A DNA stretch of 64,000 nt. It comes from Candidatus Omnitrophota bacterium. Lineage in GTDB: Bacteria > Omnitrophota > Gorgyraeia > Duberdicusellales > 4484-171. The number at the start of each line of letters is the position of its first letter. The stretch's first letter is position 1. Where the stretch lies: positions 1,615 to 65,614 of the forward strand of contig JAAEQW010000274.1 in NCBI GenBank assembly GCA_024231025.1. Direction: 5' to 3'. Below are positions 1 through 63,388 of this stretch, in pieces. A program made the translations under genes and the position numbers. The notes below the pieces were generated by a model. It searched no databases. It saw nothing but the letters and a program-made list of their open reading frames with translations, and was not told the origin of the DNA.

Positions 1-2919
1 CCTGATTGGAACACGCACCATAAATAGATTCTTAACCCGTTCAATCTGATCAGAAGAAGCCCTTCTCTTTTCAAGGTACTCCAACATAAAATTCTCAGCC
101 TTACCCGCTACAGTATCTCGCGTCAATTCAAGATCCAACCCTTCGGCCAAAAGAAGAACCGCCAAATACGCACATGCCAACTCAAGAGAAACCCCATGCT
201 TATTGTCTGCCTCCTGATTATCTTGATCATTAATCGGCAACAACTCTATCTTGGGATTTATCTGATCAATGACTCTATCAATTTGCCCAATAATATCTTC
301 CTCATTCTTTCCTGGAATCACACGTCCTTCCATCTCTTCAATCAGAGCAAAGAATATCCCTGCACGGCGAAATACTGCATACTGATCTTCGGTAGCAAAA
401 TGTATTGGCAAACGAGTATAAGGCACTTGTGGTTGCACCTGTCCTAATGGCAGTTTTAGAAACTCTTGAACATTAGCTTTTTTTGGCGACATACCAAAAA
501 AATCCACAATCTCTGCGTGACTATATCTTGGACAACCAAACCCTTCAGCCATTCGACAGGCAATCCTTTCTAAAGGACTAAACAATCCAGAAATCTCCTT
601 AAATCGCTCTAAGCTAAGCGGCATAAACCTTGAATCGTCATCACCTTCACTTTTTGTTGCTCCAATTTTTTCCGCCATAGAATCGAATACCTCTGCTAAA
701 GCTTGAAACCCAAGGTATGTTAAATTAGCTTCAGATAAGGCAAATTCTTTCGTTTTTTTTAATTGCTCTTTGTCCAAAGCTTTAGCGCTCTCTATCAAAC
801 TGGCAAGGGTTACTGCGCTTGAATATATATTAAGTAATTCGGTAGGAGTCGCTGTAGCTACTAACTTGAATAAATCTGGTCCATGAGAAGGATCTACCAA
901 GCTTGTTAAAGATAGAACTGCTCCTAAATCTGGTTCTACTGCTTTGGCCACAACAGTTTCCGTTATTTGTTTAGGACTACTTTTTTTTGATCGCTTAACC
1001 AACCGGGTGAACTCTCGATCCGCTTCACGAAAAATCTGCCGCTGCAGGATTCGTAATAAGTAATGTCGGCCCTGCGCGGTGGTTGAGTCAATAGATTCAA
1101 GATCATACGCCCAGCTTTCGTTCTGTGCCCGCAGCTTAGTGATTGCATAACTTACATCAATGAATTTGGCTTTATCTCCAACTAAAATTATCAATTCTTG
1201 CTTATCGCAATCAAATTGCATACCAAACTTTATTTCTGATCTCCATAAATAGTGCCCAATCTCATGAACCCGGGCAATAATATTTTTTGCGATCCGAATA
1301 TCGTAAGCAAGCAGCTTAGGACTGCAAGAAATAAACCCACGGTGGTTTCCTAAAGACTCATCGGAATCCTCGTAAAAAGATATTGGCACATTAGATGGAA
1401 AAAGATCAATTATTCCCTGAAGCAAGGATTTGTAGTCAGGAGAAGCAGCATCAACCATTTTTTTTCTTTCTTCTTTAGAAAAATTTGATTTAATTCGCCG
1501 CTCAAGAACTTTTAATTTAACTTTCCCCTTCTTAAATTTACTTCCCTTGGCAGGAGTAACTTCGGCAATAATAAAATGCGAATTTGCTTGTTCAAGATTT
1601 ATTTTCTCAAAATCATTACCAATAAAGTCTGAGCTTGCACTACCCTCTGGATGATCAAGTAAAGATAGAGGACCATTGTTTCCCAAAACCCGCAGATCTA
1701 CTTCGATTACGCCTGCCCCGGGTGCACCGTCATAACCGGGCATTGGTTTAGATGGGGTAGGGATCTGGGTAAAAACGGTTCCTCCGGAGAAGTATTTACG
1801 CCTTATGCGTTTGTTTGTAGGTGCGTTGTGGTCTTTTCTGATGTAGTTGTAGACACCTTTTTTGTAAGCCTGAAGATATTGGTTGTAAATCTTTTCTTTT
1901 ATTTTGGGGTCTGTGCCTTCGATCCCTTTGATTTTGTTTTTATCGAAATATACCTGATCCAATACCAATACTTCCGGGGACACGTACCGTTCTCGGCCTT
2001 CGGCCTGCGCTTCCGGTACATGTCCCCGTGTGTCAACTGAGCGCCGCAGGCGGCGCTTAAACCATGTGGCAAGAATTAAAGAATTGTAGATTTGCCGCAA
2101 ACGGGTAAATTGCTCTCCTTTGTTCACCTCTTCTTCAATTACAGGAAGAATGGTTTCTTTTGCGATTTGGGAAGAAACATTATCGGGCACGGCACGCCGT
2201 GCCCCTACGGGTTGGTTTATGGTCTGATTACGTTGCATAGCAACGTAATCTTCTTCCAACATAACTTTCAACGTCGCCTTACCAACAAACGCTTTGTTTT
2301 TATCCGTATAAATTAATACTTCATCTGGGGATATCCAAACTTTATTGAAAGTGTTAATGGGAATATCAGTAGTTTCGTAGAGATCTTGGGTTTTGGTATA
2401 AATTTTTTGCCAGTATTTTTTACCTAGGTCGCTTTCGGGATAAGTTAAAGAAGCGGACAATTGTTTTAGAATGTAGTCTTCGCCAAGGAGATCTCTTCCA
2501 ACGTCAGTTAAACCTAAATCATTAGGAGCAATCCTGTCTTCTTCGTATGGGGAAAGATTAACCCATAAATCCTCAGAAGGAATAGTAAGACCTGCTAAAA
2601 AATATCTGATCAACCTTTGGCTTTCCTCTTTAAATTCACTATCATTCAACTGGCGATCTCCTTCATCAATAATAAATCTGAATTTAAAAGGATCTTCGGG
2701 ATAAAACTCAATGCCTTGGATAGTTATTGGATGAATATGTTGACTGGTATTAATTAATTCGGTTGGCGCCGACATATAGGACAGGACAGAAGCATAGCCA
2801 ACACTAGCCTGATTTACGTAAATTGCTAACCCAGACAAAATCAGGCTACCGGCAAGAAAGACCCCTAAAGCTTTAAAACCAATACTAGCTTTGCGTTTTT
2901 GCAATAATTTTAAGATCAT
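1..2919 (-). CDS. Large membrane-anchored protein, partial (C-terminus runs off the window start). It has an N-terminal TM segment, a domain paralogous to the 59484-60983 protein, and a central HEIGH (HExxH) metallopeptidase-like motif.
   Basis: The minus-strand frame from ATG 2919 was checked codon by codon over 1201-1860, 2761-2919 and about 900-1260, with no stops. The HEIGHYLW motif is encoded at about 1230-1260. The DNA at 1840-1990 is near-identical to 59815-59940. The gene is absent from the ORF track only because it is truncated by the window edge. Confidence 0.5.
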   Translation of the reverse strand, partial: MILKLLQKRKASIGFKALGVFLAGSLILSGLAIYVNQASVGYASVLSYMSAPTELINTSQHIHPITIQGIEFYPEDPFKFRFIIDEGDRQLNDSEFKEESQRLIRYFLAGLTIPSEDLWVNLSPYEEDRIAPNDLGLTDVGRDLLGEDYILKQLSASLTYPESDLGKKYWQKIYTKTQDLYETTDIPINTFNKVWISPDEVLIYTDKNKAFVGKATLKVMLEEDYVAMQRNQTINQPVGARRAVPDNVSSQIAKETILPVIEEEVNKGEQFTRLRQIYNSLILATWFKRRLRRSVDTRGHVPEAQAEGRERYVSPEVLVLDQVYFDKNKIKGIEGTDPKIKEKIYNQYLQAYKKGVYNYIRKDHNAPTNKRIRRKYFSGGTVFTQIPTPSKPMPGYDGAPGAGVIEVDLRVLGNNGPLSLLDHPEGSASSDFIGNDFEKINLEQANSHFIIAEVTPAKGSKFKKGKVKLKVLERRIKSNFSKEERKKMVDAASPDYKSLLQGIIDLFPSNVPISFYEDSDESLGNHRGFISCSPKLLAYDIRIAKNIIARVHEIGHYLWRSEIKFGMQFDCDKQELIILVGDKAKFIDVSYAITKLRAQNESWAYDLESIDSTTAQGRHYLLRILQRQIFREADREFTRLVKRSKKSSPKQITETVVAKAVEPDLGAVLSLTSLVDPSHGPDLFKLVATATPTELLNIYSSAVTLASLIESAKALDKEQLKKTKEFALSEANLTYLGFQALAEVFDSMAEKIGATKSEGDDDSRFMPLSLERFKEISGLFSPLERIACRMAEGFGCPRYSHAEIVDFFGMSPKKANVQEFLKLPLGQVQPQVPYTRLPIHFATEDQYAVFRRAGIFFALIEEMEGRVIPGKNEEDIIGQIDRVIDQINPKIELLPINDQDNQEADNKHGVSLELACAYLAVLLLAEGLDLELTRDTVAGKAENFMLEYLEKRRASSDQIERVKNLFMVRVPIR

Positions 2920-5270: not shown

Positions 5271-6080
5271 TTACCTTTGATCTCTTTCTACCTTTTCCGT
5301 ATCGATTATAACACAGACCGAACCAAGACCGGTTTCTAATCCTTCGTAGCGAAGCACCTCGTGAGGACTATTAGTTGTACACCAGAAATAGGTTGGCGGC
5401 ACAAGAGCGCTTGTCACTTTAGTTAAAATTCCAAAATCAGGAATAAGCCTAACCTTAATTGCTTCGATTGCGCCACTAGAATGATCCAAAGTTTCAATGC
5501 CTAAATCTTTTACGTTAATCTTGTATAACTTTGGTTCGCTTGAAACCAGATAGTACCGCAGGTGTTCTTTTTTGTCACGATTAGCAATGACCGCCTTTAA
5601 AAAAGGTCCCATCGTAAGATCGTCAACTGTTTTACCCTTTATAGGAAAAATTTTCTTTTTTATGACTTTGCCGTCTTTATTTGTGGCGCTGTAAAATATC
5701 CGCTTTTTGCGATAATCGTAAATCTTTTCATATTTGATGGCAACCGTTCCATCTTCATTCTTAATTGTTTGTGTGCTAAAATTTGGATACAAAAATCCGC
5801 CCCTTTCCACCACTTCAGCAACTGCGTCCCAAGTTACTTGTTTAAATTTTCCATAATCGCCCTTGCCATGTTGATTAATCTGATATATTGGTTGATTATT
5901 GCCGGGTAATTTTTTTATAGAAAAGGTGCGTTCAGAGCGCAGGTGCCCTGATTTTTTAGTAACGCAAATATCTTTGCCGTATTCAAAATCAAGTATAGAT
6001 GCACTTGACGGCTCCTGCGCATTCCCACTGATGGCTGTAGTCATAAAAAAAAGAGCTAAAAAAATCTTTAAGAAATACAT
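5271..6080 (-). CDS. Secreted hypothetical protein with an N-terminal signal peptide.
   Basis: The N-terminus MYFLKIFLALFFMTTAISGNAQE is signal-peptide-like. The remaining 269 aa are lysine-rich. Confidence 0.4.
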   Translation of the reverse strand: MYFLKIFLALFFMTTAISGNAQEPSSASILDFEYGKDICVTKKSGHLRSERTFSIKKLPGNNQPIYQINQHGKGDYGKFKQVTWDAVAEVVERGGFLYPNFSTQTIKNEDGTVAIKYEKIYDYRKKRIFYSATNKDGKVIKKKIFPIKGKTVDDLTMGPFLKAVIANRDKKEHLRYYLVSSEPKLYKINVKDLGIETLDHSSGAIEAIKVRLIPDFGILTKVTSALVPPTYFWCTTNSPHEVLRYEGLETGLGSVCVIIDTEKVERDQR

Positions 6081-6144: not shown

Positions 6145-6222
6145 ATTGTAGGGGCGGGCCCGTGTGTCCGCCCGTTATAATTCATTTTGTCCCGGGTCGA
6201 CACATAGGTCGACCCCTACAAT
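6145..6222. repeat. REP-like palindromic element, copy 1: TTGTAGGGG + hairpin, spacer, hairpin + CCCCTACAAT.
   Basis: GC-rich hairpins GGGGCGGGCC-cgtgt-GTCCGCCCG and CCCGGGTCGAC-acatag-GTCGACCC, flanked by inverted TTGTAGGGG/CCCCTACAA ends. Related copies lie at 41454-41660 and 60149-60251. Confidence 0.7.
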
Positions 6223-38420: not shown

Positions 38421-38858
38421 TTAGTTACTTTTATTATGTGCTTTTTCTTCGGCACGTTTTACATACGAAAGAGTAACGTAGGCAATGATTGTTGCAAATA
38501 AAGCGCCACTTATATACCCGCAACCAGCAGCCAAACCGATTGCCGCGTTTATCCAAACGCTTCCAGCTGTGGTTAACCCTCTAATTCCTTGAGGGTTCCT
38601 TATAATCGTACCTGCGCCTAAAAATCCAATACCCGTTACAACCCCCGCAGCAATCCTGCCAGGATCAATTTGTGCTATATCTTGATAAGCTTGGAAAACA
38701 TATATTGACACCAGCATTATAAGAGCCGAGCCAACGCAAACTAAAATATGCGTACGAAGCCCAGGGTGTTTTCCTCTTTTTTCCCGTTCTAATCCAATTA
38801 CCCCACCAAAAACAAAAGCCAGCGATAATCGCACTATCGTATCAAACAAACTTAACAT
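38421..38858 (-). CDS. MgtC/SapB family membrane protein.
   Basis: FVFGGVIGLEREKRGKHPGLRTHILV motif. Confidence 0.75.
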   Translation of the reverse strand: MLSLFDTIVRLSLAFVFGGVIGLEREKRGKHPGLRTHILVCVGSALIMLVSIYVFQAYQDIAQIDPGRIAAGVVTGIGFLGAGTIIRNPQGIRGLTTAGSVWINAAIGLAAGCGYISGALFATIIAYVTLSYVKRAEEKAHNKSN

Positions 38859-39844
38859 TAACTTGCCTCCGCTTTTAAACTCAGGTTACTTTTTATCCCC
38901 TTATTATACAAATAAAATCCTATTCCTGCAACCATTGCGGCATTATCAGTAGAATAGGTCAAAGGAGCGGCAAAAAGCCTTATTTTACGCTCTTTTTGCG
39001 CGCTTAATCGCGCTCGCAAAAAGCTATTTGCAATAACCCCGCCACCGCAAACCACTCGGTTTATACCAGTCTTAATTGACGCATCAACTACAGTTTGAAC
39101 AATTGCTTCAACCACTGTAGCTTGAAAAGCAGAAATCAGACCAATTTTGCTTTTTCTATCAAGTAACTTTTTCTTTTCAAGCTCGATCTGTTTATAAATA
39201 ACTGCTGTTTTTATTCCACTAAAACTTAAATCAAGACCAATCTTACCACATTTAAATTTAAATTCATCTTTTCGCTTGGCATCAAATAATTTATCAATTA
39301 TCGGCCCGCCAGGATAACCCAACCCCAAACTTCTTCCAATTTTATCAAAAACTTCTCCGCAAGCATCATCTCGAGTTTGCCCTATAATTTTCATTTTATT
39401 AAAATCATCTACACGATAAATTTCAGTATGCCCACCAGACACAACCAATCCCAAAAAGGGAAACTTAATTTTAGCAGGATAATTCAAGAAAGGTGCAAAA
39501 AGGTGTGCGTGCAAATGATTCACTCCAATAAGCGGTTTGCCCAACGCTAAAGATAATGCCTTAGCAAAATTGATTCCAACAACTAACGATCCGATTAATC
39601 CGGGCTTATGCGTTACGGCAATTACACTTATCCTATGCAATGAGATTTTTGCCTCGCTTAAAGCTGCGTTAAAAACCTTATCGATATTCTTAAGATGCGC
39701 GCGAGTGGCAATTTCCGGAATAATTCCTCCATATTTCTTATGCTGGCGCAAAGAAGATATAGTTACATTGCTTAAGACTTTATAATTTTTCAAAACAGCG
39801 CAAGACGTTTCGTCGCAAGATGTTTCTATTCCTAAAGTATACAT
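38858..39844 (-). CDS. tsaD: tRNA N6-adenosine threonylcarbamoyltransferase TsaD (Kae1/Gcp).
   Basis: MYTLGIETSCDETSCAV N-terminus and HxxAH metal motifs. The start was chosen at the internal M; the track ORF extends to 39904. Confidence 0.85.
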   Translation of the reverse strand: MYTLGIETSCDETSCAVLKNYKVLSNVTISSLRQHKKYGGIIPEIATRAHLKNIDKVFNAALSEAKISLHRISVIAVTHKPGLIGSLVVGINFAKALSLALGKPLIGVNHLHAHLFAPFLNYPAKIKFPFLGLVVSGGHTEIYRVDDFNKMKIIGQTRDDACGEVFDKIGRSLGLGYPGGPIIDKLFDAKRKDEFKFKCGKIGLDLSFSGIKTAVIYKQIELEKKKLLDRKSKIGLISAFQATVVEAIVQTVVDASIKTGINRVVCGGGVIANSFLRARLSAQKERKIRLFAAPLTYSTDNAAMVAGIGFYLYNKGIKSNLSLKAEAS

Positions 39845-39858
39845 CTTAAAATTCAAAA

Positions 39859-39982
39859 CAACCAAGAAACAAGATACAATAACCAAATAAGCTCCAATCA
39901 TCAAATCCCAATAACCAGATTTTTTGATTATTGAATATTGGAAATTGGTTATTATTTGTATCTTGCATCTTGGTTATTGGTT
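39859..39982. repeat. Second long imperfect AT-rich palindrome (TTGGTTATT/AATAACCAA arms), intergenic between tsaD and ctp.
   Basis: The left arm ...CAACCAAGAAACAAGATACAATAACC is approximately the reverse complement of the right arm GGTTATTATTTGTATCTTGCATCTTGGTT. Confidence 0.45.
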
Positions 39983-41453: not shown

Positions 41454-41660
41454 CGTAGGGGCGGGCCTTGTGTCCGCCCGTGATAATATAAAATTGTCAA
41501 TAATCGGTAAATAATTGACGATCGGTTGTAATACCTAGCCATATCCATGACATAGTAAATATTGTAGGGGCGGGGTCTCCCCGCCCGGATAAAATGTCAT
41601 TGAATATCGACAATCAAAATAATTATGACAACGGGCACGGAAAACGTGCCCCTACAATTG
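41454..41660. repeat. Cluster of three REP-like hairpins upstream of the TA/RAYT locus (a BIME-like array).
   Basis: Hairpins GGGGCGGGCC-ttgt-GTCCGCCCG, TTGTAGGGGCGGGG-tct-CCCCGCCC and GGGCACG-gaaaa-CGTGCCCCTACAATTG. The stem sequences differ but pairing is preserved. Confidence 0.7.
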
Positions 41661-41741: not shown

Positions 41742-41984
41742 ATGACAACATTAACGGCCAGTGAGGCGCGAGCAAAGCTGTATAAGCTATTGGACAAAGC
41801 GGCTCTATCGCATGAGCCCATACAAATTACCGGTAAAAGGCATAATGCCGTATTAATCTCAGAAGATGACTGGCGTGCAATAAACGAAACGCTATATTTG
41901 CTTTCTGTTCCGAAAATGAGGGAATCTATCCGAGAAGGCCTGAAAACCCCTATCAAAAAGTGCAATAAAAGATTGAAGTGGTAG
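41742..41984 (+). CDS. yefM: Antitoxin, Phd/YefM family.
   Basis: MTTLTASEARAKLYKLLD...PIQITGKRHNAVLISEDDWRAINETLYLL. Confidence 0.8.
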   Translation: MTTLTASEARAKLYKLLDKAALSHEPIQITGKRHNAVLISEDDWRAINETLYLLSVPKMRESIREGLKTPIKKCNKRLKW

Positions 41985-42244
41985 ACTGGAAACTAGTTTA
42001 TACAAAACAAGCCCAAAAGGATGCGAAAAAACTATCATCTGCTGGTTTACGCCTAAAAGCAGAGACCCTTCTCAAAGTCGTAAGAAAAAACCCTTTCCAG
42101 GCCCCTCCTCCATTCGAAAAGCTAATTGGCGACCTAGAAGGCGCATATTCTCGCAGAATAAATATCAAGCATCGTCTTGTGTATCAAGTGCTAAAAAAGT
42201 ATAAAACAGTAAAAATTATTCGAATGTGGACGCATTACGAATAA
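41978..42244 (+). CDS. yoeB: Toxin YoeB (Txe family mRNA interferase).
   Basis: W..VYTKQAQKDAKKL...IKHRLVYQV...IIRMWTHYE, overlapping the yefM stop. Confidence 0.85.
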   Translation: MVDWKLVYTKQAQKDAKKLSSAGLRLKAETLLKVVRKNPFQAPPPFEKLIGDLEGAYSRRINIKHRLVYQVLKKYKTVKIIRMWTHYE

Positions 42245-42317: not shown

Positions 42318-42872
42318 ATGACATACACATTTAAATCCCGTAAAACAATAAGGCTGAAGAACCACGACTATTCAAAGCAAGGGTATTACCATGTTACAAT
42401 CTGCACATATAACCATCTAGAAACCTTTGGTATAATCGAGAATAATAAAATGGCGTTAAACCAATGCGGCGAGATTGTGAAAAATGCCTGGTTAGACCTA
42501 CCTAATCACCATAAAAATATTGAATTAGATGAATTTATCGTTATGCCTAATCATATACATGGAATAATCAACGTCGTTGCAGGGGCCGGGCCTGCCCGGC
42601 CCTCTAATAAAAATACGAAAAATAATAATTTGTCCATTATAATTGGATCATATAAATCCACGGTCACAAAACAAATCAATAAATTAAATAATAATTCATT
42701 CAAATGGCAGCGTTCTTTCCACGATGAGGTTATCCGTACCAGCAATCGCTCTCTATATAATTCACGTCATTATATTGTAAATAATCCTGCAACATGGGAT
42801 AATGATGAAAATAATATTAAAAATTATTCTGTAAAGGGCGAGGCAGGCCTCGCCCCTGCAACTACGTTTTGA
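42318..42872 (+). mobile_element. REP-associated tyrosine transposase (RAYT, IS200/IS605-like TnpA_REP).
   Basis: HxH motif (MPNHIHGII) and a C-terminal Y-containing region. The gene is flanked by REP hairpins upstream (41454-41660) and downstream (42838-42925). REP-like GC hairpins are even embedded in its own coding sequence (42582-42608). Confidence 0.8.
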
Positions 42873-42905
42873 TAAAATATATAGGGGCCTAACAAAAACC
42901 ATCCC

Positions 42906-54970: not shown

Positions 54971-57900
54971 TTAGTACGGTTTACTTTTGCGGCGGATGCG
55001 TGTGATTTCAAGACGAAAGCCAGTGATCGCAGCAGGATCAATATCAATGAATTCCTGCGCAACAACGGGGACATGTACCGCCTGCCTGCCGGACGGGCAG
55101 GGAAGCCCCGACAAAGTCGGGGATCGGTGCGCGTCCCCGGAAGACACAAAAGAACCGGAGCGTTCTTCATCTATTTCAATCATTTCAGAATTAAGATCAA
55201 TGCCGCCAGAAATGATAGTTTTAGATGAGGCACCGGCATTTTGATTTCTGGCGACTCGTGCCGATACAGCTGAAGACAATTCTTCTTTTACATGAGAATA
55301 GAACATCTCCTCGTATCTACCCCATTCATTCTTTTTGTGATTTTCATATTCATCAACTATTTCTAAAAGTTGCTCAACACTCATCTGCTCAATCACCCAT
55401 GCATGATACAGGGTAAGCTGCGTTTCATTTTGGCTGAAATATTTTTTCTGACGCTGGGCCGCAACATGATGGGGTTGCCCCTCGATGCGTTCGGTGTATT
55501 CATGATCAATTACCTCACCCAAAGCAAAGAATGTAAAATTGTCTTGATTAATATAATTTGAATTAAGAATTATTGATAAAGTGCCGTCGATTTCTTTTCT
55601 GCCGGCAGCGTCCATAGTCTCAGGTAGATGATCGGATAAATACACATTGATCTTTTGCTTATCAAGCTTATCGGCATCTTCCATTCCTACCAAAGGGGAT
55701 TTTAGAAATTTAACAAGCTCATTCTTATCAAATGACAATTCTCGCTCAGGATTAATCAAAGCATTAAATTGATCATCGGTAAATTTTGGTTTGGCTACAT
55801 CACCAACCCTGCGGCTAGGGCGTTTAAGGGCAACCGGAAAATTCTTTACTTTGCCTTCATCTTCTAACTTGACGACATCGATAACCGGCACATTAAGATG
55901 AAAAATATCACTTTTTTTAATACCTTCTGAAGGCTGCTCACCCAAGGGGATCGGCTGTGCCCGACCTCTTTGTTTTTTCCGTTTTTTGTTCCGATGTTTA
56001 TTTTTTTCTTGCGATCTCTTTCTTTTGGTGTTATTAGCTCCTTCTTTCACCCCTATTTCTTGTTTAAGTCTTTTATACCGTTTGGAATTTACCGGTAAAA
56101 ATATTATGACATCTTCATATCTAACAACACCCTTAACTTCCTCTACCGCCCGAACATCCTCAAGCGTAAGTTCTTTATTGCCGGAACTAGCAACTTTTTT
56201 CTTCACCACCAATGAAAATGCCTTTTCAAAAATTGTAATATAGGAAAAAGAATCTCTACTGGAAGTTACAACTATAGTAGGAAAATCTTTAATGCTTCCT
56301 TCTTCTAAAGCGTCAAAAAGATAATTTACTAATTTAACAGCGAAGTTCGCTGAATAACAAGCTCCGATAATTATTACTAAGTCTGATAAAGTGCCGACTT
56401 TAGCTGCCCGCTTCATCAAAGCCTCACCGTACTCTTGATAGCTAATTGCCCAAGGGTGCTCCATTTTGTCACTTACTTCTCTTCCTAGCTTCCCACCTCT
56501 CAACCACAAATGCTCTGGGCCGCCATGCTTATGATGCCAAAGTACGTTATTTTTATCATTAATAGGTATGTTAGGCACTGTCTTCTCAAGAAATTTAATT
56601 TTATCTTCGACGCCTTCAAACCGATTTTCTTGATCAATGGTAACGCCTAAAGGCTTTACTATATCTTCTAACTGCTCGCCAGTAAAATCTTTATCAACAT
56701 GAGTATACGCATACACCGAAGATCCTTTCTGAATAAGCGCTCTTCGTTTGTTCGCTTCATCAAAAGTCTCAACTATAAAAAATAGTGCTTTCTCAATCGC
56801 TATCGCTTGTCGCAAATTGTAATTATCCTCTGTGGAAAGTTGGATATCAAAACGTTCCAAAAGAAGCACAACTGACTTAGCCAAAGAAAACTGATTGGCA
56901 TATTTTTTACTAAATGCTAAAGGGAGCGTTTTCGCAATAAAAGCACTATTAAGATATACTGCCCTTACTTCATCAATTGAAAAATTACCTCTACCAATTT
57001 CTGATGATCGCCAAAAAATATTCTGCCAAAAAGGATCAAGAGTACTCGTAACCTCTTCCATTTGCTCATAATTTAACTTCATCGCAATTACATATAAAAC
57101 TCTACTCGCAGCCTCACGAAGTTCCTTATTCTCAGACTCTAGTGCCCTAAAAAGCTTCTCAAACAAAGTATCACCAATTAAGCGAAATCCACTTGATATG
57201 TTTCCATGGTTGGTTTTTCCTTGCAAAGATTTTAGAAAAGGAGGCACAAGAACATCCCTAAGATATTCAATATCACGTAAATGCGCACCGGACATAACTT
57301 CTATTACTAATTTTGCTGTTTTTTGATTCAACTCCTTATTTTCTGAAGCTAAAGTTTCAATAAAAATCTTAAAAACTTCAACAGTCAATATTGATCCCAT
57401 TTCAGTTAACCTCATTCGGGATCGATCCCTATTTTTCTTCTTGTTATCCTCTAGGCTATCAATAAGTGCTAATGCGGCTTTTTGACGCATGGATTTAAAA
57501 GTTGTGCTATCTGTAACTGGTTTTTTAAACATATTACCTAAACCCTCAATAGCCATAAATCGCATTTTGCTATCATTATGCTTTAAGGTCTTCATAGCAC
57601 TAGAGAAAACGTCTTCTGCTATCGTGGTGGATAAATCCTCGTAAATATCAGCGAATATATGTCCTAGACCAATTGTGGCAAACGAATTGCCTTGATTAAT
57701 TGCTGTAATTAACATTGGAATAAGTTTTTGCTCAATAACCCTAGCTTTTACTTGCGTAGAACACAGCCCTTCCATAGCCATCGCAGCAACATCTCTTACA
57801 TATTCTTCTTTAGCCAGCAGACCATGCAGCCCTATAGCAACAACAATTTCGGTTCTACGGTTTTTGTTTTTTTCCCCTTTAAGAACTTTTGCGATTTTCG

Positions 57901-59527
57901 ATAGCTCTTTGGATAATCTTGAAAGAACATCAAAATCTTGATCATTACGCAACAGTTGTAAAAAGTCGTCGAGAAATCCTTTTGCAGCAGGATTAATCCA
58001 AACTGATGCAGAGATTGCCGCGCTACGAACTTCGCCATCTTGCGAAGAATCTTTCGCTATTCTAAGCAATTCTTTGGTTAATTTTTTCTTTAAAGTAAAA
58101 CCAACATTCTTTGCTAAAAGACCTAAATTATCTATAACCACCTGGCGAAAACCCGCCGGCTCAGAAGTGCTATTTGCTATGGCTCTCAAACCCTCAATGA
58201 GATTAGTCATTTCTTTTAATATTTTTTTTGCCTCAAGGCTATTCTTATTAGATTCGCTTTGATAAGCCTGAATCATTATTTTTTTTGCCATATAAAGCGC
58301 TCTAAGGCGAATTTTTGGATTTTGAATTGGTTCTTGGGCGATATCACCTAAAGACTGCGCAACTTCTTTCAACGCACCCCAAGATTCTCCATCAATAATC
58401 TCTCGTAATAATTTCGCAACCATTTCACGAAAAGCAACTTCCTGAGAATCGCTAGATAACTCTTGCATAATTGAAAGAAATACATCAATCACTTCTAACT
58501 TACGCGATAAGGAAAACCTATAAACATCTTTAAGAAATGTTTTATCAAAAATAATTGCTGCAATTTCACGAATAACAGGATCTAAAGACGAATCGTTAAG
58601 CAAAGGCAGCAAATCTAAAATTGCTTTTTCTTTTCTTGAACGTTTTTGATTCTTGATCAATTCACCCCAAGAAGCTAAGGCCTCGGCACGAATAACTGGC
58701 TTTGCGCCTTCGTCACAGACAACATTATAAAGTACAGAAATAAGTTCTTGTCTGCGCTTGAAACCAATTTTGCTTTTTAGAGAAGAAAAAGTTATTCGCA
58801 AAGCAAGAACACCAAACGCCTCAACAGATGAACTTTGCAATTGCCCTTTTACTACCTCAATAAGATCGTTGAAAACATTCTGCTGTGCGTCTAGCTCCAT
58901 ATCTTTCAGTATTTTCTCTAGTGTTGGTCCAAAGAAATCAGCAATGGACCAAAAAGCAGAATTACGCTTTAATTCAACTATAAAAAAGGAAACTAGTCTT
59001 TCTTTAAATTCATTTGAAAATTTATCGACCCCTGAATCCAAAATATCAAGCAATGCCGCGCTGATATCCCTTCTTATAATTTGAATCGACGTAGAAATGC
59101 CCGGATTTTTTAGCGACTCCTCTAGCGAACCTAAAAGAACAATGGCTATCCGCTCTCTAGTAGCTAAATCTACTTTTGCTCGTAAAATCATTAAAGAATC
59201 TGTAGCCGCCGTGATAAGAACTTGAGATTGAGGATAGTCTTTTATTATGCTAAGAAAAAGATCAACGATCTCCTTTGACGGTGAAATAACAATCTCGCTC
59301 AAAAGCTTCATGGCTTTTACCCGTTGATCCAAACTTGAAAAAATATCATCTTTTACTATTCCGATAAGAACTGGAGTAATTTCTTTGGCAAGATCTTCAT
59401 CAACTTGGGCAGGATTAAGATCTAACACATCCTCTCTTAAGGTAACTTCTTCTTCAGGCGCAAAACGCTCAACGGCTTGCGAATTAGAGAGTTCTTTCAA
59501 GCTTGAGGCGCAACCAAACACCATCAC
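54971..59527 (-). CDS. Giant (1518 aa) HEAT/ARM-repeat protein with a KR-rich linker and a C-terminal degenerate HExxH-like domain (DHEYTE).
   Basis: Long alpha-helical repeat region with no stops. The C-terminal segment aligns with the HEIGH region of the 1-2919 protein but reads IDHEYTERIEG. The 3' end of the ORF (about 55040-55150) runs through GC-rich REP-like hairpins. Confidence 0.5.
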   Translation of the reverse strand: MMVFGCASSLKELSNSQAVERFAPEEEVTLREDVLDLNPAQVDEDLAKEITPVLIGIVKDDIFSSLDQRVKAMKLLSEIVISPSKEIVDLFLSIIKDYPQSQVLITAATDSLMILRAKVDLATRERIAIVLLGSLEESLKNPGISTSIQIIRRDISAALLDILDSGVDKFSNEFKERLVSFFIVELKRNSAFWSIADFFGPTLEKILKDMELDAQQNVFNDLIEVVKGQLQSSSVEAFGVLALRITFSSLKSKIGFKRRQELISVLYNVVCDEGAKPVIRAEALASWGELIKNQKRSRKEKAILDLLPLLNDSSLDPVIREIAAIIFDKTFLKDVYRFSLSRKLEVIDVFLSIMQELSSDSQEVAFREMVAKLLREIIDGESWGALKEVAQSLGDIAQEPIQNPKIRLRALYMAKKIMIQAYQSESNKNSLEAKKILKEMTNLIEGLRAIANSTSEPAGFRQVVIDNLGLLAKNVGFTLKKKLTKELLRIAKDSSQDGEVRSAAISASVWINPAAKGFLDDFLQLLRNDQDFDVLSRLSKELSKIAKVLKGEKNKNRRTEIVVAIGLHGLLAKEEYVRDVAAMAMEGLCSTQVKARVIEQKLIPMLITAINQGNSFATIGLGHIFADIYEDLSTTIAEDVFSSAMKTLKHNDSKMRFMAIEGLGNMFKKPVTDSTTFKSMRQKAALALIDSLEDNKKKNRDRSRMRLTEMGSILTVEVFKIFIETLASENKELNQKTAKLVIEVMSGAHLRDIEYLRDVLVPPFLKSLQGKTNHGNISSGFRLIGDTLFEKLFRALESENKELREAASRVLYVIAMKLNYEQMEEVTSTLDPFWQNIFWRSSEIGRGNFSIDEVRAVYLNSAFIAKTLPLAFSKKYANQFSLAKSVVLLLERFDIQLSTEDNYNLRQAIAIEKALFFIVETFDEANKRRALIQKGSSVYAYTHVDKDFTGEQLEDIVKPLGVTIDQENRFEGVEDKIKFLEKTVPNIPINDKNNVLWHHKHGGPEHLWLRGGKLGREVSDKMEHPWAISYQEYGEALMKRAAKVGTLSDLVIIIGACYSANFAVKLVNYLFDALEEGSIKDFPTIVVTSSRDSFSYITIFEKAFSLVVKKKVASSGNKELTLEDVRAVEEVKGVVRYEDVIIFLPVNSKRYKRLKQEIGVKEGANNTKRKRSQEKNKHRNKKRKKQRGRAQPIPLGEQPSEGIKKSDIFHLNVPVIDVVKLEDEGKVKNFPVALKRPSRRVGDVAKPKFTDDQFNALINPERELSFDKNELVKFLKSPLVGMEDADKLDKQKINVYLSDHLPETMDAAGRKEIDGTLSIILNSNYINQDNFTFFALGEVIDHEYTERIEGQPHHVAAQRQKKYFSQNETQLTLYHAWVIEQMSVEQLLEIVDEYENHKKNEWGRYEEMFYSHVKEELSSAVSARVARNQNAGASSKTIISGGIDLNSEMIEIDEERSGSFVSSGDAHRSPTLSGLPCPSGRQAVHVPVVAQEFIDIDPAAITGFRLEITRIRRKSKPY

Positions 59528-60983
59528 AGCTACAGCAAAATAAAAAAATTCCGGCGTTACGTAGCGATTTTTTCTTATCGTGTTTAGGCTCCTCCTTTAA
59601 CCCGCTGTCCACCGCATAAGTATCGGCAGGTTTACTTTGGCGAAGAAACTCACCGTTTGCATCAATGCCTGAAATCGGTCCGTTAGCTTTAGTGGAAATA
59701 ACCGAATTGATTGGTTCTTCAACTTCTTGCAGGCATTGTTCGTTTTCTCTTGCGTCAAAACCACCGGAATAATAACGCCGGTTAATTTTGCGATTTAATT
59801 TTTCGTCAAAATCAGGTCGAATATAATTATAAACGCCCTTTTTGTAGGCCTCGACATATTGATTGTAGATCTTTTCTTTTATTTGGGGATCCGTGCCTTC
59901 GATCCCTTTGATTTTGTTTTTATCGAAATATATCTTGTCTAATATATTTTTGTTTTTATCCCGGGAGGACACAAGGCCCTCCCCTACTGAGCGGCGAAGC
60001 CGTTTTTTAAACCATGTAGCAAGGATTAAGGCATTATAAATTTGGCGCAGGCGCGCAAATTGCTGGCCCTTGTTGATTTCTTCTTCAATCACCGGCAAAA
60101 TCATTTCCTTTGCAATCTGGGCGGATAATTTGTTGATATTATGATCATTTGTAGGGGCGGACCTATGTGTCCGCCCGTTATGATTAATTATATGATTATC
60201 GTATAATTCATTATTTTGACCCGGGTCGACACATAGGTCGACCCCTACAATATTTTGTTTTTGGGCAACATAGTCACTCTCCATCATCACCTTGAAACTG
60301 CTTTCTTTAACGAAAGCGCGATTGCCTTCAACTGAAACAACTGCTTTATCGGGGATAATCCAAATTTTGTTAAAGGTATCAATCGCAATGTTGGTTGTGC
60401 CGTAAAGCTCATTAGCGCGAGCGTAAATTTTCTTCCAGAATTTTTTGCCTAAAGGGCTTTCTGGATAAGTCAAAGAAGCGGTCAATTGTTTTAAAATATA
60501 ATCCTCACCCAAAAGATCGCGCCCCATGTCAGTTAACCCTAATTCGTGAGGAGTTACTCTATCTTTCTCATAGGGAGAAAGATTCACCCATAAGTCTTGT
60601 GCTGGAGTAGTTAATGAAGCTAAAAAATATTTAATCAATCGATGTGCTTCAATCTTAAATTCCTGATCATCTACGGCAGTATCGCCCTCATCAAGAGTAA
60701 AACGAAAAGCGAAAGGATCGTTGGGAAAAAATTCTAAACCACGCAATAATATTGGATTAAAATGCGAACTAGTCTCAATAATTTTTGTTGGAGCCGACAT
60801 ATAGGGCAAGGCAGAGGCATAGCTTGTATTTGTCTTAACAAAATAGGCAGCAACCGTCGAAAACAAAATGGCTAAAATCACAAAGCCAACGATTGCCTTA
60901 AAAGAGATTGATCCTTTTTTCCGCTGTATAAAAATTCCCATAATGATATACCTGTAACTTAGACTATCATTTAAATGTAACAT
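59484..60983 (-). CDS. Membrane-anchored protein paralogous to the N-terminal 500 aa of the 1-2919 gene. It may be the frameshifted 5' part of a single gene with 54971-59527.
   Basis: DNA at 59815-59940 is near-identical to 1840-1990. The protein motifs YMSAPT, VNLSPYE, GLTD(V/M)GRDLLGEDYILKQL and KNKIKGIEGTDP(K/Q)IKEKIYNQY are shared. It overlaps the next ORF by 44 nt. Confidence 0.5.
   Translation of the reverse strand: MLHLNDSLSYRYIIMGIFIQRKKGSISFKAIVGFVILAILFSTVAAYFVKTNTSYASALPYMSAPTKIIETSSHFNPILLRGLEFFPNDPFAFRFTLDEGDTAVDDQEFKIEAHRLIKYFLASLTTPAQDLWVNLSPYEKDRVTPHELGLTDMGRDLLGEDYILKQLTASLTYPESPLGKKFWKKIYARANELYGTTNIAIDTFNKIWIIPDKAVVSVEGNRAFVKESSFKVMMESDYVAQKQNIVGVDLCVDPGQNNELYDNHIINHNGRTHRSAPTNDHNINKLSAQIAKEMILPVIEEEINKGQQFARLRQIYNALILATWFKKRLRRSVGEGLVSSRDKNKNILDKIYFDKNKIKGIEGTDPQIKEKIYNQYVEAYKKGVYNYIRPDFDEKLNRKINRRYYSGGFDARENEQCLQEVEEPINSVISTKANGPISGIDANGEFLRQSKPADTYAVDSGLKEEPKHDKKKSLRNAGIFLFCCSCDGVWLRLKLERTL
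60149..60251. repeat. REP-like element inserted in-frame within the 59484-60983 coding sequence.
   Basis: TTGTAGGGGCGGACC-tatgt-GTCCGCCCG ... CCCGGGTCGAC-acatag-GTCGACCCCTACAAT. The ORF stays open and the element is translated as ...NHNGRTHRSAPTNDH... Confidence 0.65.
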
Positions 60984-62384: not shown

Positions 62385-62468
62385 GCGAGGGTGGCGGAAT
62401 TGGCAGACGCACTAGCTTGAGGGGCTAGCGGTAGCGATATCGTAGGGGTTCAACTCCCCTCTCTCGCA
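62385..62468 (+). tRNA. tRNA-Leu (anticodon GAG), 84 nt with a long variable arm.
   Basis: Acceptor GCGAGGG/CTCTCGC, anticodon arm CTAGC-TTGAGGG-GCTAG and T arm GGGG-TTCAACT-CCCC, with discriminator A. Confidence 0.8.
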
Positions 62469-62746
62469 TTTCTTTTTGCTAACAAACAAGGTTAACAGCG
62501 AAACAAAGCAGAACATCAATCCGGAAGGCTCTTTCGTTGGATATAATAAACCCTTCGGGCGCTCCGCTACCGCGGAGATTATACACAACTCCTCTCTCGC
62601 ATTTTTAGCCACTTTGACCAACTAAAAGCGAAAAACGAAGAGTGTAAAACCATAGCGTAAAATTCAAAAATAGATACACTCTTTATTCCGAAAAATAATT
62701 TTTAATTTTGAATTATGGCTTTTCATTTTTAGCTTTGCGTTTTTAG

Positions 62747-63388
62747 TTAACTAAGGAGTTCTTTTGATATGCCAATATCAACAATGAAGATTTTTCCACA
62801 TAGCAGTTTTCCTTCTTGTGTCGAAAAAGCTTTCTTTGGGGCGAGAAAACTTATTGTCACGTCAGCTTTTATTGCTGCGCCGCATATCCTACCATCATCC
62901 GGAGAAAGCCCTGATGGAATATCACATGCTACTATTTTTTTACCCGATTGATTTATCGTATTAATTACCTCTTCCAAGAACGACGGCACCTCCCCCCTAA
63001 TACCTATTCCGAGCAGTCCCTCCAAAACAAAATCTGCTTCATTTAAAAAACTAATCAGTTCTTTTGAATCCGTTGAAACAGGGATGCTAAGCTGCTCTAA
63101 AATTTGCTTCTGAAAAAACGCCTCGCTTGCCAATTCTTTTTCGGCAATAATAAGCACTTGCACCTGATACCCGCGACTTATAAGTTTACGCCCGCAAGCT
63201 AAAACATCGGCACCGTTGTTTCCTCTTCCGGAAACAACTAACACTTTTTTACCAAAATTTAATTCATCGATTATAGAAAAAAGATTACTGGAAGCATTTT
63301 CGATAAGTATGCGTTCTGACAAGCCCAGGGAAACGGCTTTTTTATCGAGGAAACGAAATTCATCTACAGATAGGCTATTTTGATCCAA
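62747..63388 (-). CDS. NAD(P)H-hydrate epimerase (YjeF N-terminal domain).
   Basis: VLVVSGRGNNGADVLACGRKL motif. Confidence 0.75.
   Translation of the reverse strand: MDQNSLSVDEFRFLDKKAVSLGLSERILIENASSNLFSIIDELNFGKKVLVVSGRGNNGADVLACGRKLISRGYQVQVLIIAEKELASEAFFQKQILEQLSIPVSTDSKELISFLNEADFVLEGLLGIGIRGEVPSFLEEVINTINQSGKKIVACDIPSGLSPDDGRICGAAIKADVTISFLAPKKAFSTQEGKLLCGKIFIVDIGISKELLS

Follow-up and report, generated by a model that had tools for sequence, protein, structure and literature searches.

How does the same kind of GC-rich hairpin come to lie, in frame and at equivalent positions, inside two related protein-coding genes? The question arises from a 64,000-nucleotide (nt) stretch of contig JAAEQW010000274.1, part of a metagenome-assembled genome (MAG) of Candidatus Omnitrophota. 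This whole stretch is referred to below as the window. Two large genes lie in it, gene 1 at its start and gene 2 near its end. In the original prediction, both were said to carry hairpins of the repetitive extragenic palindrome (REP) type. Two origins were offered: REPs domesticated independently as a linker-coding segment, or divergence of the genes after insertion, with the hairpin preserved as a structure of the mRNA. The analysis described here points to a different emphasis. The hairpins are probably selfish GTAG-type REPs, and inverted REP doublets (REPINs), which survive only when in frame and only in permissive loops of a multi-copy, membrane-anchored protein family of the Omnitrophota.

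Two predicted loops in one protein family

The reading frame of gene 1 is open for 973 codons, from position 2919 to the window start. In its protein, a membrane anchor at the N-terminus precedes a conserved Omnitrophota-specific domain of about 380 amino acids (aa). Over some 400 aa the proteins of gene 1 and gene 2 are 56% identical (E = 2e-157), and their hairpins fall within one gapped linker of the pairwise alignment, which bears out the proposal that the genes are paralogues with hairpins at equivalent positions. The family comprises 1327 homologues, those with names being mostly from Omnitrophota, and several copies occur per genome. The C-terminal parts vary among members, some of which have HEAT or ankyrin repeats there. 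Searches of Pfam, NCBIfam and PDB sequences gave no family match for the paralogues, nor did a PDB fold search with the AlphaFold (AF2) model of the gene 1 domain return a match. That model was built from a 121-sequence alignment and has a mean pLDDT (predicted local distance difference test) of 87.4 and a pTM (predicted template modelling score) of 0.83; the corresponding values for gene 2 are 82.4 and 0.79. Two further members recur below: P0004, a third paralogue from the same MAG, and P0003, a homologue from another MAG (locus L005). Gene 2 itself is P0001.

The gapped linker, here called site A, connects the segments '...EEDYLAL' and 'SSxIxKEIxLPxIExEVN'. Its sequence varies throughout the family, and it measures 18-54 aa with a mode of 33. 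In gene 1, the hairpin predicted at 2185-2211 is indeed present, as a single GTAG-tagged REP (GGGCACGG-CACG-CCGTGCCC-CTAC-GGG on the plus strand). It is read GTA GGG GCA CGG CGT GCC GTG CCC, or VGARRAVP, at residues 238-245 (context PVGARRAVPD) of the open frame, and its RNA fold has an energy of -17.1 kcal/mol. Gene 2 has a REPIN at the same site. Its arms (60149-60177 and 60222-60250, 86% complementary) hold one unit on the plus strand (60151-60176) and one on the minus strand (60223-60248), and the stems of both differ from that of the gene 1 REP. The doublet is translated as IVGVDLCVDPGQNNELYDNHIINHNGRTHRSAPT within an open ORF (open reading frame), also as originally predicted, and folds as RNA at -49.4 kcal/mol (z = -8.0).

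Site B was not part of the original prediction. It follows the motif 'WFKxxLKxS', and in about 95 of 107 homologues it consists of the bare five residues 'LLGQV' with no insert. In gene 1, the insert at this site is 24 residues long and contains a nested hairpin, translated within ...DTRGHVPEAQAEGRERYVSPEV... at residues ~298-315, whose RNA fold has an energy of -39 kcal/mol (z = -6.5). In gene 2, the insert is 14 residues long and contains a single GTAG REP. In the third paralogue, P0004, the contig stops within site B, the last residues being ...SPVGNGPAR. The frame continues through two elements in gene 1 and three units in gene 2, all of them flanked by conserved protein on either side. 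The nested hairpin type has two copies in the window, both in frame in coding sequence but with different inner hairpins. The second copy lies in an ORF encoding HEAT repeats and folds at -44.4 kcal/mol (z = -4.0). The nested-hairpin pattern GGGGACRYGYACCG had no match among 95 other loci scanned.

The predicted structures were checked for a loop, as proposed at the outset, and in the AF2 models both sites are coils of low pLDDT that connect helices. In gene 1, site A falls in coil 234-244 (pLDDT 64-69) and site B in coil 297-314 (pLDDT 53-65). The stretch encoded by the gene 2 REPIN has a pLDDT below 50 (model residues 235-261), and the site B REP of gene 2 lies in a block with a pLDDT of 58 beside coil 324-332.

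Other family members show what may occupy site A. The peptide of P0004 is VGARRAVP, as in gene 1. P0003 carries GTAG-GGGCACA-GCGTGA-TGTGCCC in the orientation and frame of gene 1, and a G-C to A-T exchange in its stem preserves the pairing. GTAG REPs are also present there in three members from unrelated samples: L006 with GTAGGGGCGGGTTTGAAACCCGCCC, L007 with GTAGGGACACGGCATGCCGTGCCCCTAC and L008 with a doublet. Still others hold unrelated palindromes, and VIPAKAGIQ and QPGDMALAVSP are examples of the encoded peptides. In 85 loci taken together, the density of GC-rich hairpins is 1.19 per kb within site A and 0.28 per kb elsewhere in the coding sequence of the domain, an enrichment of about fourfold; among loci not chosen for REPs, 6 of ~80 have one at site A. 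The comparison of homologues for presence or absence of an insert, proposed with the original prediction, shows that most lack one at site B and that site A is hypervariable family-wide. As a separate observation, site A of P0003 (L005 560-640) also holds a 14-nt perfect palindrome, GCCTGCCGGCAGGC, encoding CRQAG, and both of its sites (L005 560-640 and 820-870) contain short AGACCA-type repeats that encode peptides rich in K, D, H, R, P and T. These repeats are another low-complexity filler at the same two loops.

A REP family and a RAYT-like gene in the window

The REP units were sought with the pattern GTAGGGG-N-stem-CCC, for which a chance expectation was calculated and 100 shuffles were run. 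There were nine matches in the 64-kb window against 0.16 expected, and none of the shuffles reached nine (0/100), which rules out a chance hairpin. Two of the matches, at 42884/42885, overlap, so that eight distinct units are represented. Taking the full architecture of a G[T/C]AG tag, a GC stem of 7-8 bp and a loop of 3-6 nt, the window contains 11 units, nine tagged GTAG and two GCAG, at six loci; dispersed copies were counted within the window. Stems were defined by an explicit stem search, as a MAFFT alignment of the units lay out of structural register. The tag directly abuts the stem in 11/11 units, and the stems (GGG....CCC) are 100% paired by Watson-Crick or G-T pairs in every one, although there are seven distinct stem sequences. 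Conserved tags next to stems that vary yet stay compensated are characteristic of REPs, and these units are identified as such. Three inverted doublets qualify as REPINs (60149-60250, 6145-6222 and 41561-41658), and the two that were folded each reach about -49 kcal/mol with z about -8. A gathering scan of the whole window with Rfam returned two tRNAs only, so the hairpins represent no known RNA family.

Six of the 11 units are inside homology-supported ORFs, namely gene 1, gene 2 and a transposase gene described below, while five lie in two intergenic spacers. Intergenic status was judged from Pfam-supported neighbouring genes; stop-to-stop ORF cover (94%) was rejected as a measure because spurious ORFs spanned the intergenic REPs. 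In this the window units depart from the mostly extragenic location of GTAG-type REPs, a class for which intragenic exceptions are documented. Those at 41455-41658 are bordered by an S41 peptidase gene and by a pair of genes for a YefM (Phd) antitoxin and a YoeB toxin (41742-42244). The toxin-antitoxin pair follows the intergenic doublet and is itself directly upstream of the transposase gene. The intergenic copies (6145-6222, 41455-41479 and 41561-41658) and this gene, like site B, go beyond the original prediction.

The gene in question encodes a protein resembling the REP-associated tyrosine transposases (RAYTs). It matches the NCBIfam model REP_Tyr_transpos (NF047646, REP-associated tyrosine transposase) with E = 2.8e-12 and 46.7 bits, below the 80-bit cut-off. 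Among its 1757 homologues, many are annotated RayT or carry PF01797 (Y1_Tnp); a Pfam scan of the window protein did not report Y1_Tnp, and a PDB sequence search with it gave nothing useful. In an alignment with 33 homologues, H79, Y152 and N156 are invariant and H81 nearly so, and the tyrosine stands in a Y-x-x-x-N-P motif. The nearest REP doublet upstream of the gene is about 660 nt away, beyond the YefM/YoeB pair. The features are collected in Table 1.

Table 1. Positions of the genes and hairpin elements discussed; coordinates are those of the window except in the last row, where they are those of the named loci.
Feature	Position	Strand	Description
Gene 1	1..2919	-	N-terminal 973 codons; protein runs past window start
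Gene 1 site B nested hairpin	1976..2027	-	52 nt; outer arms GGGGACAYGTACCG / CGGTACRTGTCCCC, inner GGCC-hairpin
Gene 1 site A single GTAG REP	2185..2208	-	GTAG-GGGCACGG-CGTG-CCGTGCCC; 8-bp stem, 4-nt loop
Intergenic REPIN	6145..6222	.	Between DUF3108-like gene and PilZ gene; RNA fold -49.6 kcal/mol, z = -8.2
Intergenic single REP	41455..41479	+	Found by pattern and stem search
Intergenic REP doublet	41561..41658	.	Stems differ: GGGCGGGG and GGGCACG; upstream of YefM/YoeB pair and RAYT-like gene
RAYT-like Y1 (HUH) transposase gene (GY858_06615)	42318..42872	+	NCBIfam match; database entry 100% identical
RAYT-internal REP-type hairpin	42579..42602	+	Just after HUH motif; GCAG-GGGCCGGG-CCTG-CCCGGCCC, read AGAGPARP
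RAYT 3' inverted REP-type hairpin	42835..42858	-	In last codons of gene (...GEAGLAPA...)
Second copy of nested GGGGACAYGTACCG-type hairpin	55067..55138	-	In frame near 3' end of 1518-codon HEAT-repeat ORF
Gene 2 (GY858_06675, P0001)	59484..60983	-	499 codons; paralogue of gene 1; database entry 100% identical
Gene 2 site B single GTAG REP	59963..59987	-	GTAG-GGGAGGGC-CTTGT-GTCCTCCC, read VGEGLVSS
Gene 2 site A REPIN	60149..60250	.	Inverted doublet with 44-nt AT-rich spacer; 102 nt = 34 codons
RAYT-homologue hairpins	L009 390-413; L010 3381-3404; L011 1259-1286; L012 ~5307-5329, ~5572-5594		

Probable insertion into permissive loops and its alternatives

The gene 2 REPIN has a near-identical counterpart in intergenic DNA. 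Its right arm and flanks are identical to those of the intergenic REPIN at 6145-6222, from which it differs mainly in that the intergenic spacer is 28 nt shorter. Because of this match, the gene 2 element is assigned to the current mobile population of the genome. Relationships within the family can be set beside it. With both sites excluded, gene 1 and gene 2 are closest to each other, at 67% identity; P0003 and P0004 also form a pair at 67%, and identity between the pairs is about 60%. A single REP at site A is nevertheless common to gene 1, P0003 and P0004, across the two pairs, and gene 2 has the REPIN instead. The site A REP of gene 1 is identical to that of P0003 or P0055 at 21/24 and 22/24 positions (88-92%), whereas the host genes agree at 29-46% of their synonymous-type (4-fold-type) positions, which is close to saturation. 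Given this difference, the REPs are either much younger than the gene divergences or strongly constrained, and are not neutrally decaying relics.

A sequence of events consistent with these results can be outlined. REPs and REPINs would be non-autonomous, hairpin-forming mobile DNA, presumably copied by the RAYT-like transposase encoded at 42318-42872 acting on single-stranded hairpins. Action of a RAYT on single-stranded REP hairpins is established for the E. coli enzyme. Copies would insert throughout the genome, and two disordered, insertion-tolerant surface loops of the protein family would be among the places that receive them. Those landing in coding DNA would persist only if the frame was kept, no stop codon was added and the loop tolerated the insert. 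The survivors would then be transcribed and translated as short Gly/Ala/Arg/Pro-rich loop extensions of presumably neutral effect. The paralogues may have been hit at equal places because these two loops seem tolerant of inserts, as opposed to having inherited one ancestral insertion. The REPs would remain recognizable because the genomic REP pool is continually renewed, or is constrained by RAYT recognition. A wider scan agrees with insertion at many sites: 39 GTAG-hairpin units were found in 545 kb, most of them inside long ORFs, and the family genes L024, L034, L069 and L088 carry GTAG REPs at other positions, as does ileS in L010.

Several observations weigh against this explanation. A close orthologue with an empty site was not found, either in a genome scan (4 loci at 43-45% identity) or in a metagenome scan (80 loci at 51% identity or less), and for this reason the insertion events themselves are something we infer. 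The single REP of gene 1 matches those of P0003 and P0004 in orientation and frame. The hairpins within the RAYT-like gene are tagged GCAG and not GTAG, and the score of its protein is under the NCBIfam cut-off. Lastly, codon phase was compared across 28 intragenic GTAG units from the window and from L005-L012, L022, L024, L034, L046, L069, L088 and L094. All of the sense-oriented units (17/17) read GTA|GGG (V-G-...), even though a second frame (xGT AGG) is also free of stops; the 17 cover several genes and sites but are not all independent, as the RAYT hairpins are homologous and some family-gene copies are shared. This uniformity exceeds the order that pure neutrality predicts. Our guess is that proteins suffer less from the V-G-A... 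reading than from the Cys/Arg-rich one.

With these points in mind, the REP shared by gene 1, P0003 and P0004 could be either an old insertion that was retained or the product of repeated hits. Repeated insertion or turnover at permissive sites is favored, with ancestral retention of the gene 1 REP as a possibility. The gene 2 REPIN is better supported as an event separate from the gene 1 REP, judging from sequence comparison. The independence envisaged in the original prediction therefore holds up for insertion, through the intergenic twin of the gene 2 REPIN, the differing stems and the contrast between well-matched REPs and saturated host sites, and does not extend to domestication as a linker-coding segment.

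Among the other explanations, maintenance of the hairpins for a nucleic-acid function inside the genes fares best, though it is unlikely. Such hairpins may cause ribosome pausing between folding units, protect or process the mRNA, or act as a weak internal attenuator; they may also serve as a recombination hot spot for the exchange of variable C-terminal modules between paralogues. Conservation of the REPs far exceeds that of synonymous sites in their host genes, the stem change between P0003 and gene 1 is compensated, and both sites fall between structural elements. Moreover, both sites are occupied by GC-rich hairpins or REP-type peptides in gene 1, gene 2 and P0004, all of one MAG. The conservation is explained just as well, however, if the REPs were inserted recently out of a constrained pool, and identical elements occur in intergenic DNA. 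The low frequency of site A hairpins among unselected loci and the absence of a site B insert from most homologues also speak against a maintained function, as does the origin of the hairpins at these sites from several unrelated palindrome families. As to attenuation, a lax scan for terminator-like sites picks up the gene 1 REP, with GATAATGTTT as its tail, but the three sites found do not exceed the 2.9 expected from shuffles; the gene 2 units were flagged on the antisense strand only. The U-tract is poor, which makes an intrinsic terminator unlikely.

Still less probable is that the Gly/Ala/Arg/Pro-rich peptides were domesticated as flexible linkers or interaction motifs, the former being one of the two options of the original prediction. 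The single frame of the sense-oriented units, with its V-G-x... peptides, would fit such a role, and VGARRAVP is identical in gene 1 and P0004 even though the proteins are only ~59% identical. On the other hand, the peptides are predicted to be disordered, are absent from most homologues and differ freely as they track the stem sequence (VGARRAVP, VGEGLVSS, VGVDLCVD); in other homologues, unrelated residues or palindromes occupy the sites. A few RAYT homologues even read the motif in another frame, giving CRGVLQYAPT or CRGRACPART.

An artefact, whether decaying pseudogenes or MAG contigs joined at repeats, is very improbable: although the sequence comes from a MAG, P0004 stops in a REP-like peptide at a contig end, a sign that assemblies break at such repeats, and an overlapping 1518-codon ORF follows gene 2, the conserved domain continues in frame on both flanks of every element, the 973- and 499-codon ORFs stay open through five GC-rich units or elements, and the arrangement recurs in independent assemblies from other samples.

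RAYT-internal hairpins and relation to known systems

The two REP-type hairpins within the RAYT-like gene deserve separate consideration. At the position of the internal one, 33 of 33 aligned homologues have a V/A-G-x-x-x-A/M-type or related REP-type peptide, and most end in ...AGLAPT-like tails. Of 101 homologues with a located HUH motif, 65 are caught by a strict regular expression for the internal peptide, and by eye most of the others are REP-type there too. At the DNA level, four homologues have an in-frame GTAG element at the internal position; in three of the four it is a self-pairing 8-bp hairpin with an unrelated paired stem. Comparing the window gene with those three, 6/8 stem pairs are changed on both sides and 100% of cells remain paired, which none of 500 shuffles match. 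In L012, the RAYT ORF contains a doublet, and its stop codon is closely followed by a REP that has the same stem. Among more remote relatives the picture is mixed: hairpins stand on either side of the HUH motif in L094, the doublets of L095 are of the classical flanking kind, and no hairpin is present in L093. A scan of viral contigs for RAYT relatives found three, all distant. A literature search, limited on this point, found no description of a RAYT-internal hairpin.

Since the hairpin is kept in more than 100 homologues, with compensated stems and with different frames in different members, the conserved entity inside the RAYT gene would appear to be a DNA or RNA element as opposed to a peptide. 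A bolder proposal, put forward only tentatively, is that in an Omnitrophota-centred branch of RAYTs the cognate REP hairpin has become an obligatory in-frame part of the transposase's own gene, between the HUH and Tyr motifs and in many cases accompanied by an inverted copy within the final codons. If so, the gene would contain a cis-acting site, for example for autoregulation, for self-targeting or as one end of a mobile unit. Together with the uniform GTA|GGG frame, it would imply a REP lineage adapted to life inside coding sequence. A functional RAYT-internal hairpin would also be a new handle on how RAYTs recognize and regulate REPs. Beside one of these homologues, in L010 (4345-4372; GCA_041652615.1, an Omnitrophota MAG), the neighbouring ileS gene carries an in-frame, perfectly palindromic GTAG...CTAC REP encoding VGNGRDRSLQ, and its stem resembles that of the internal hairpin of the RAYT gene.

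In-frame repeats have been described before. GTAG- and CGTC-tagged REPs were defined, and intragenic in-frame copies reported, by Di Nocera et al. (2013, BMC Genomics 14:522, PMC3733652), with GTAG cases most frequent in Opitutus terrae. There, dimers encode 20-30 aa, some ORFs have double inserts and both uvrA paralogues are hit (PMC3733652). As in that work, the window units combine a tag abutting a short GC-rich stem-loop, an occurrence as singles and inverted dimers, an association with a RAYT and an in-frame location, with a single unit adding about 8 aa and the REPIN 34 aa compared to up to 20-30 aa. They differ in their host phylum and in residing in an uncharacterised gene family. In the window genome, moreover, at least three paralogues have been hit in the same two loops, and so have distant homologues at site A; the frame is uniform, and the two RAYT-associated units are tagged GCAG.

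A second precedent is provided by the Rickettsia palindromic elements (RPEs), which, as relayed from Ogata et al. (2000) in PMC10969869, are selfish palindromic repeats that sit in frame in genes and are translated as an extra peptide compatible with the protein fold. The short intragenic repeats of R. conorii correspond to RPE-4 and RPE-6 and are CGTC-tagged (PMC3733652). Repeats fused within protein-coding sequences are mentioned in general reviews too. The window elements share with RPEs the nature of selfish palindromes that are in frame and presumably translated. RPEs, however, are about 100-150 bp long and belong to other sequence families, in contrast to the GTAG-tagged, RAYT-linked elements of 24-102 nt found here. 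To our knowledge, no dedicated transposase of RPEs is known. We would argue that the window REPs are analogues and not members of the RPEs, judged by length, tag and host phylum.

The classical REPIN-RAYT systems of Pseudomonas and Enterobacteria are reportedly those of Bertels & Rainey 2011, Nunvar 2010, Ton-Hoang 2012 and Messing 2012. Shared with them are doublets that form long hairpins, a single gene for a Y1 HUH transposase, a conserved GTAG head and compensated stems. While their REPs are almost entirely extragenic and flank the RAYT, more than half of the window units are in coding sequence, and in the RAYT gene itself one hairpin lies mid-ORF and another at the final codons.

As the study of Di Nocera and colleagues and the RPEs already document in-frame repeats, the REPs described here are a new example of a published phenomenon, seen in Opitutus and Rickettsia, and not a new kind. 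What they add is an extension of the in-frame 'decoration' of proteins by REPs to the Omnitrophota, an uncultured phylum that includes host-dependent and ultra-small members. A literature search found no paper joining Omnitrophota and REPs, and a 2026 survey of Omnitrophota genomes makes no mention of RAYT, IS200, hairpins or palindromes. The repeated hits on two loops of a paralogous family amount to a clean natural experiment that maps the tolerance of a fold for insertions, and they show selection filtering selfish DNA by frame and location. The recurrent targeting of two loops, the uniformity of frame and the RAYT-internal hairpin would be worthwhile to follow up. There are practical consequences for work with MAGs as well. 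Peptides encoded by REPs (VGARRAVP, ...SAPT) inflate the apparent novelty of proteins, the repeats break assemblies, as in P0004, and gene callers may be led astray by them, as with the RAYT gene, which is annotated from a later start codon.

Two minor observations concern the remainder of the window. The 1518-codon HEAT-repeat ORF (54971-59527) overlaps the end of gene 2, with the junction at 59484-59600. In frame upstream of its listed GTG start is RKNRYVTPEFFYFAVAVMVFGC, a lipoprotein-signal-like segment with a lipobox, preceded by AAAGGAGGAG and an ATA codon. For this reason, the true start may be a non-canonical codon or an ATG hidden by a base-call error. Finally, AT-rich inverted repeats with arms of 53 nt and 48 nt and 73-74% complementarity are present at 62620-62748 and 39857-39978; one is near a tRNA gene (62385-62468) and the other is at the 5' end of the ORF at 38858-39904.

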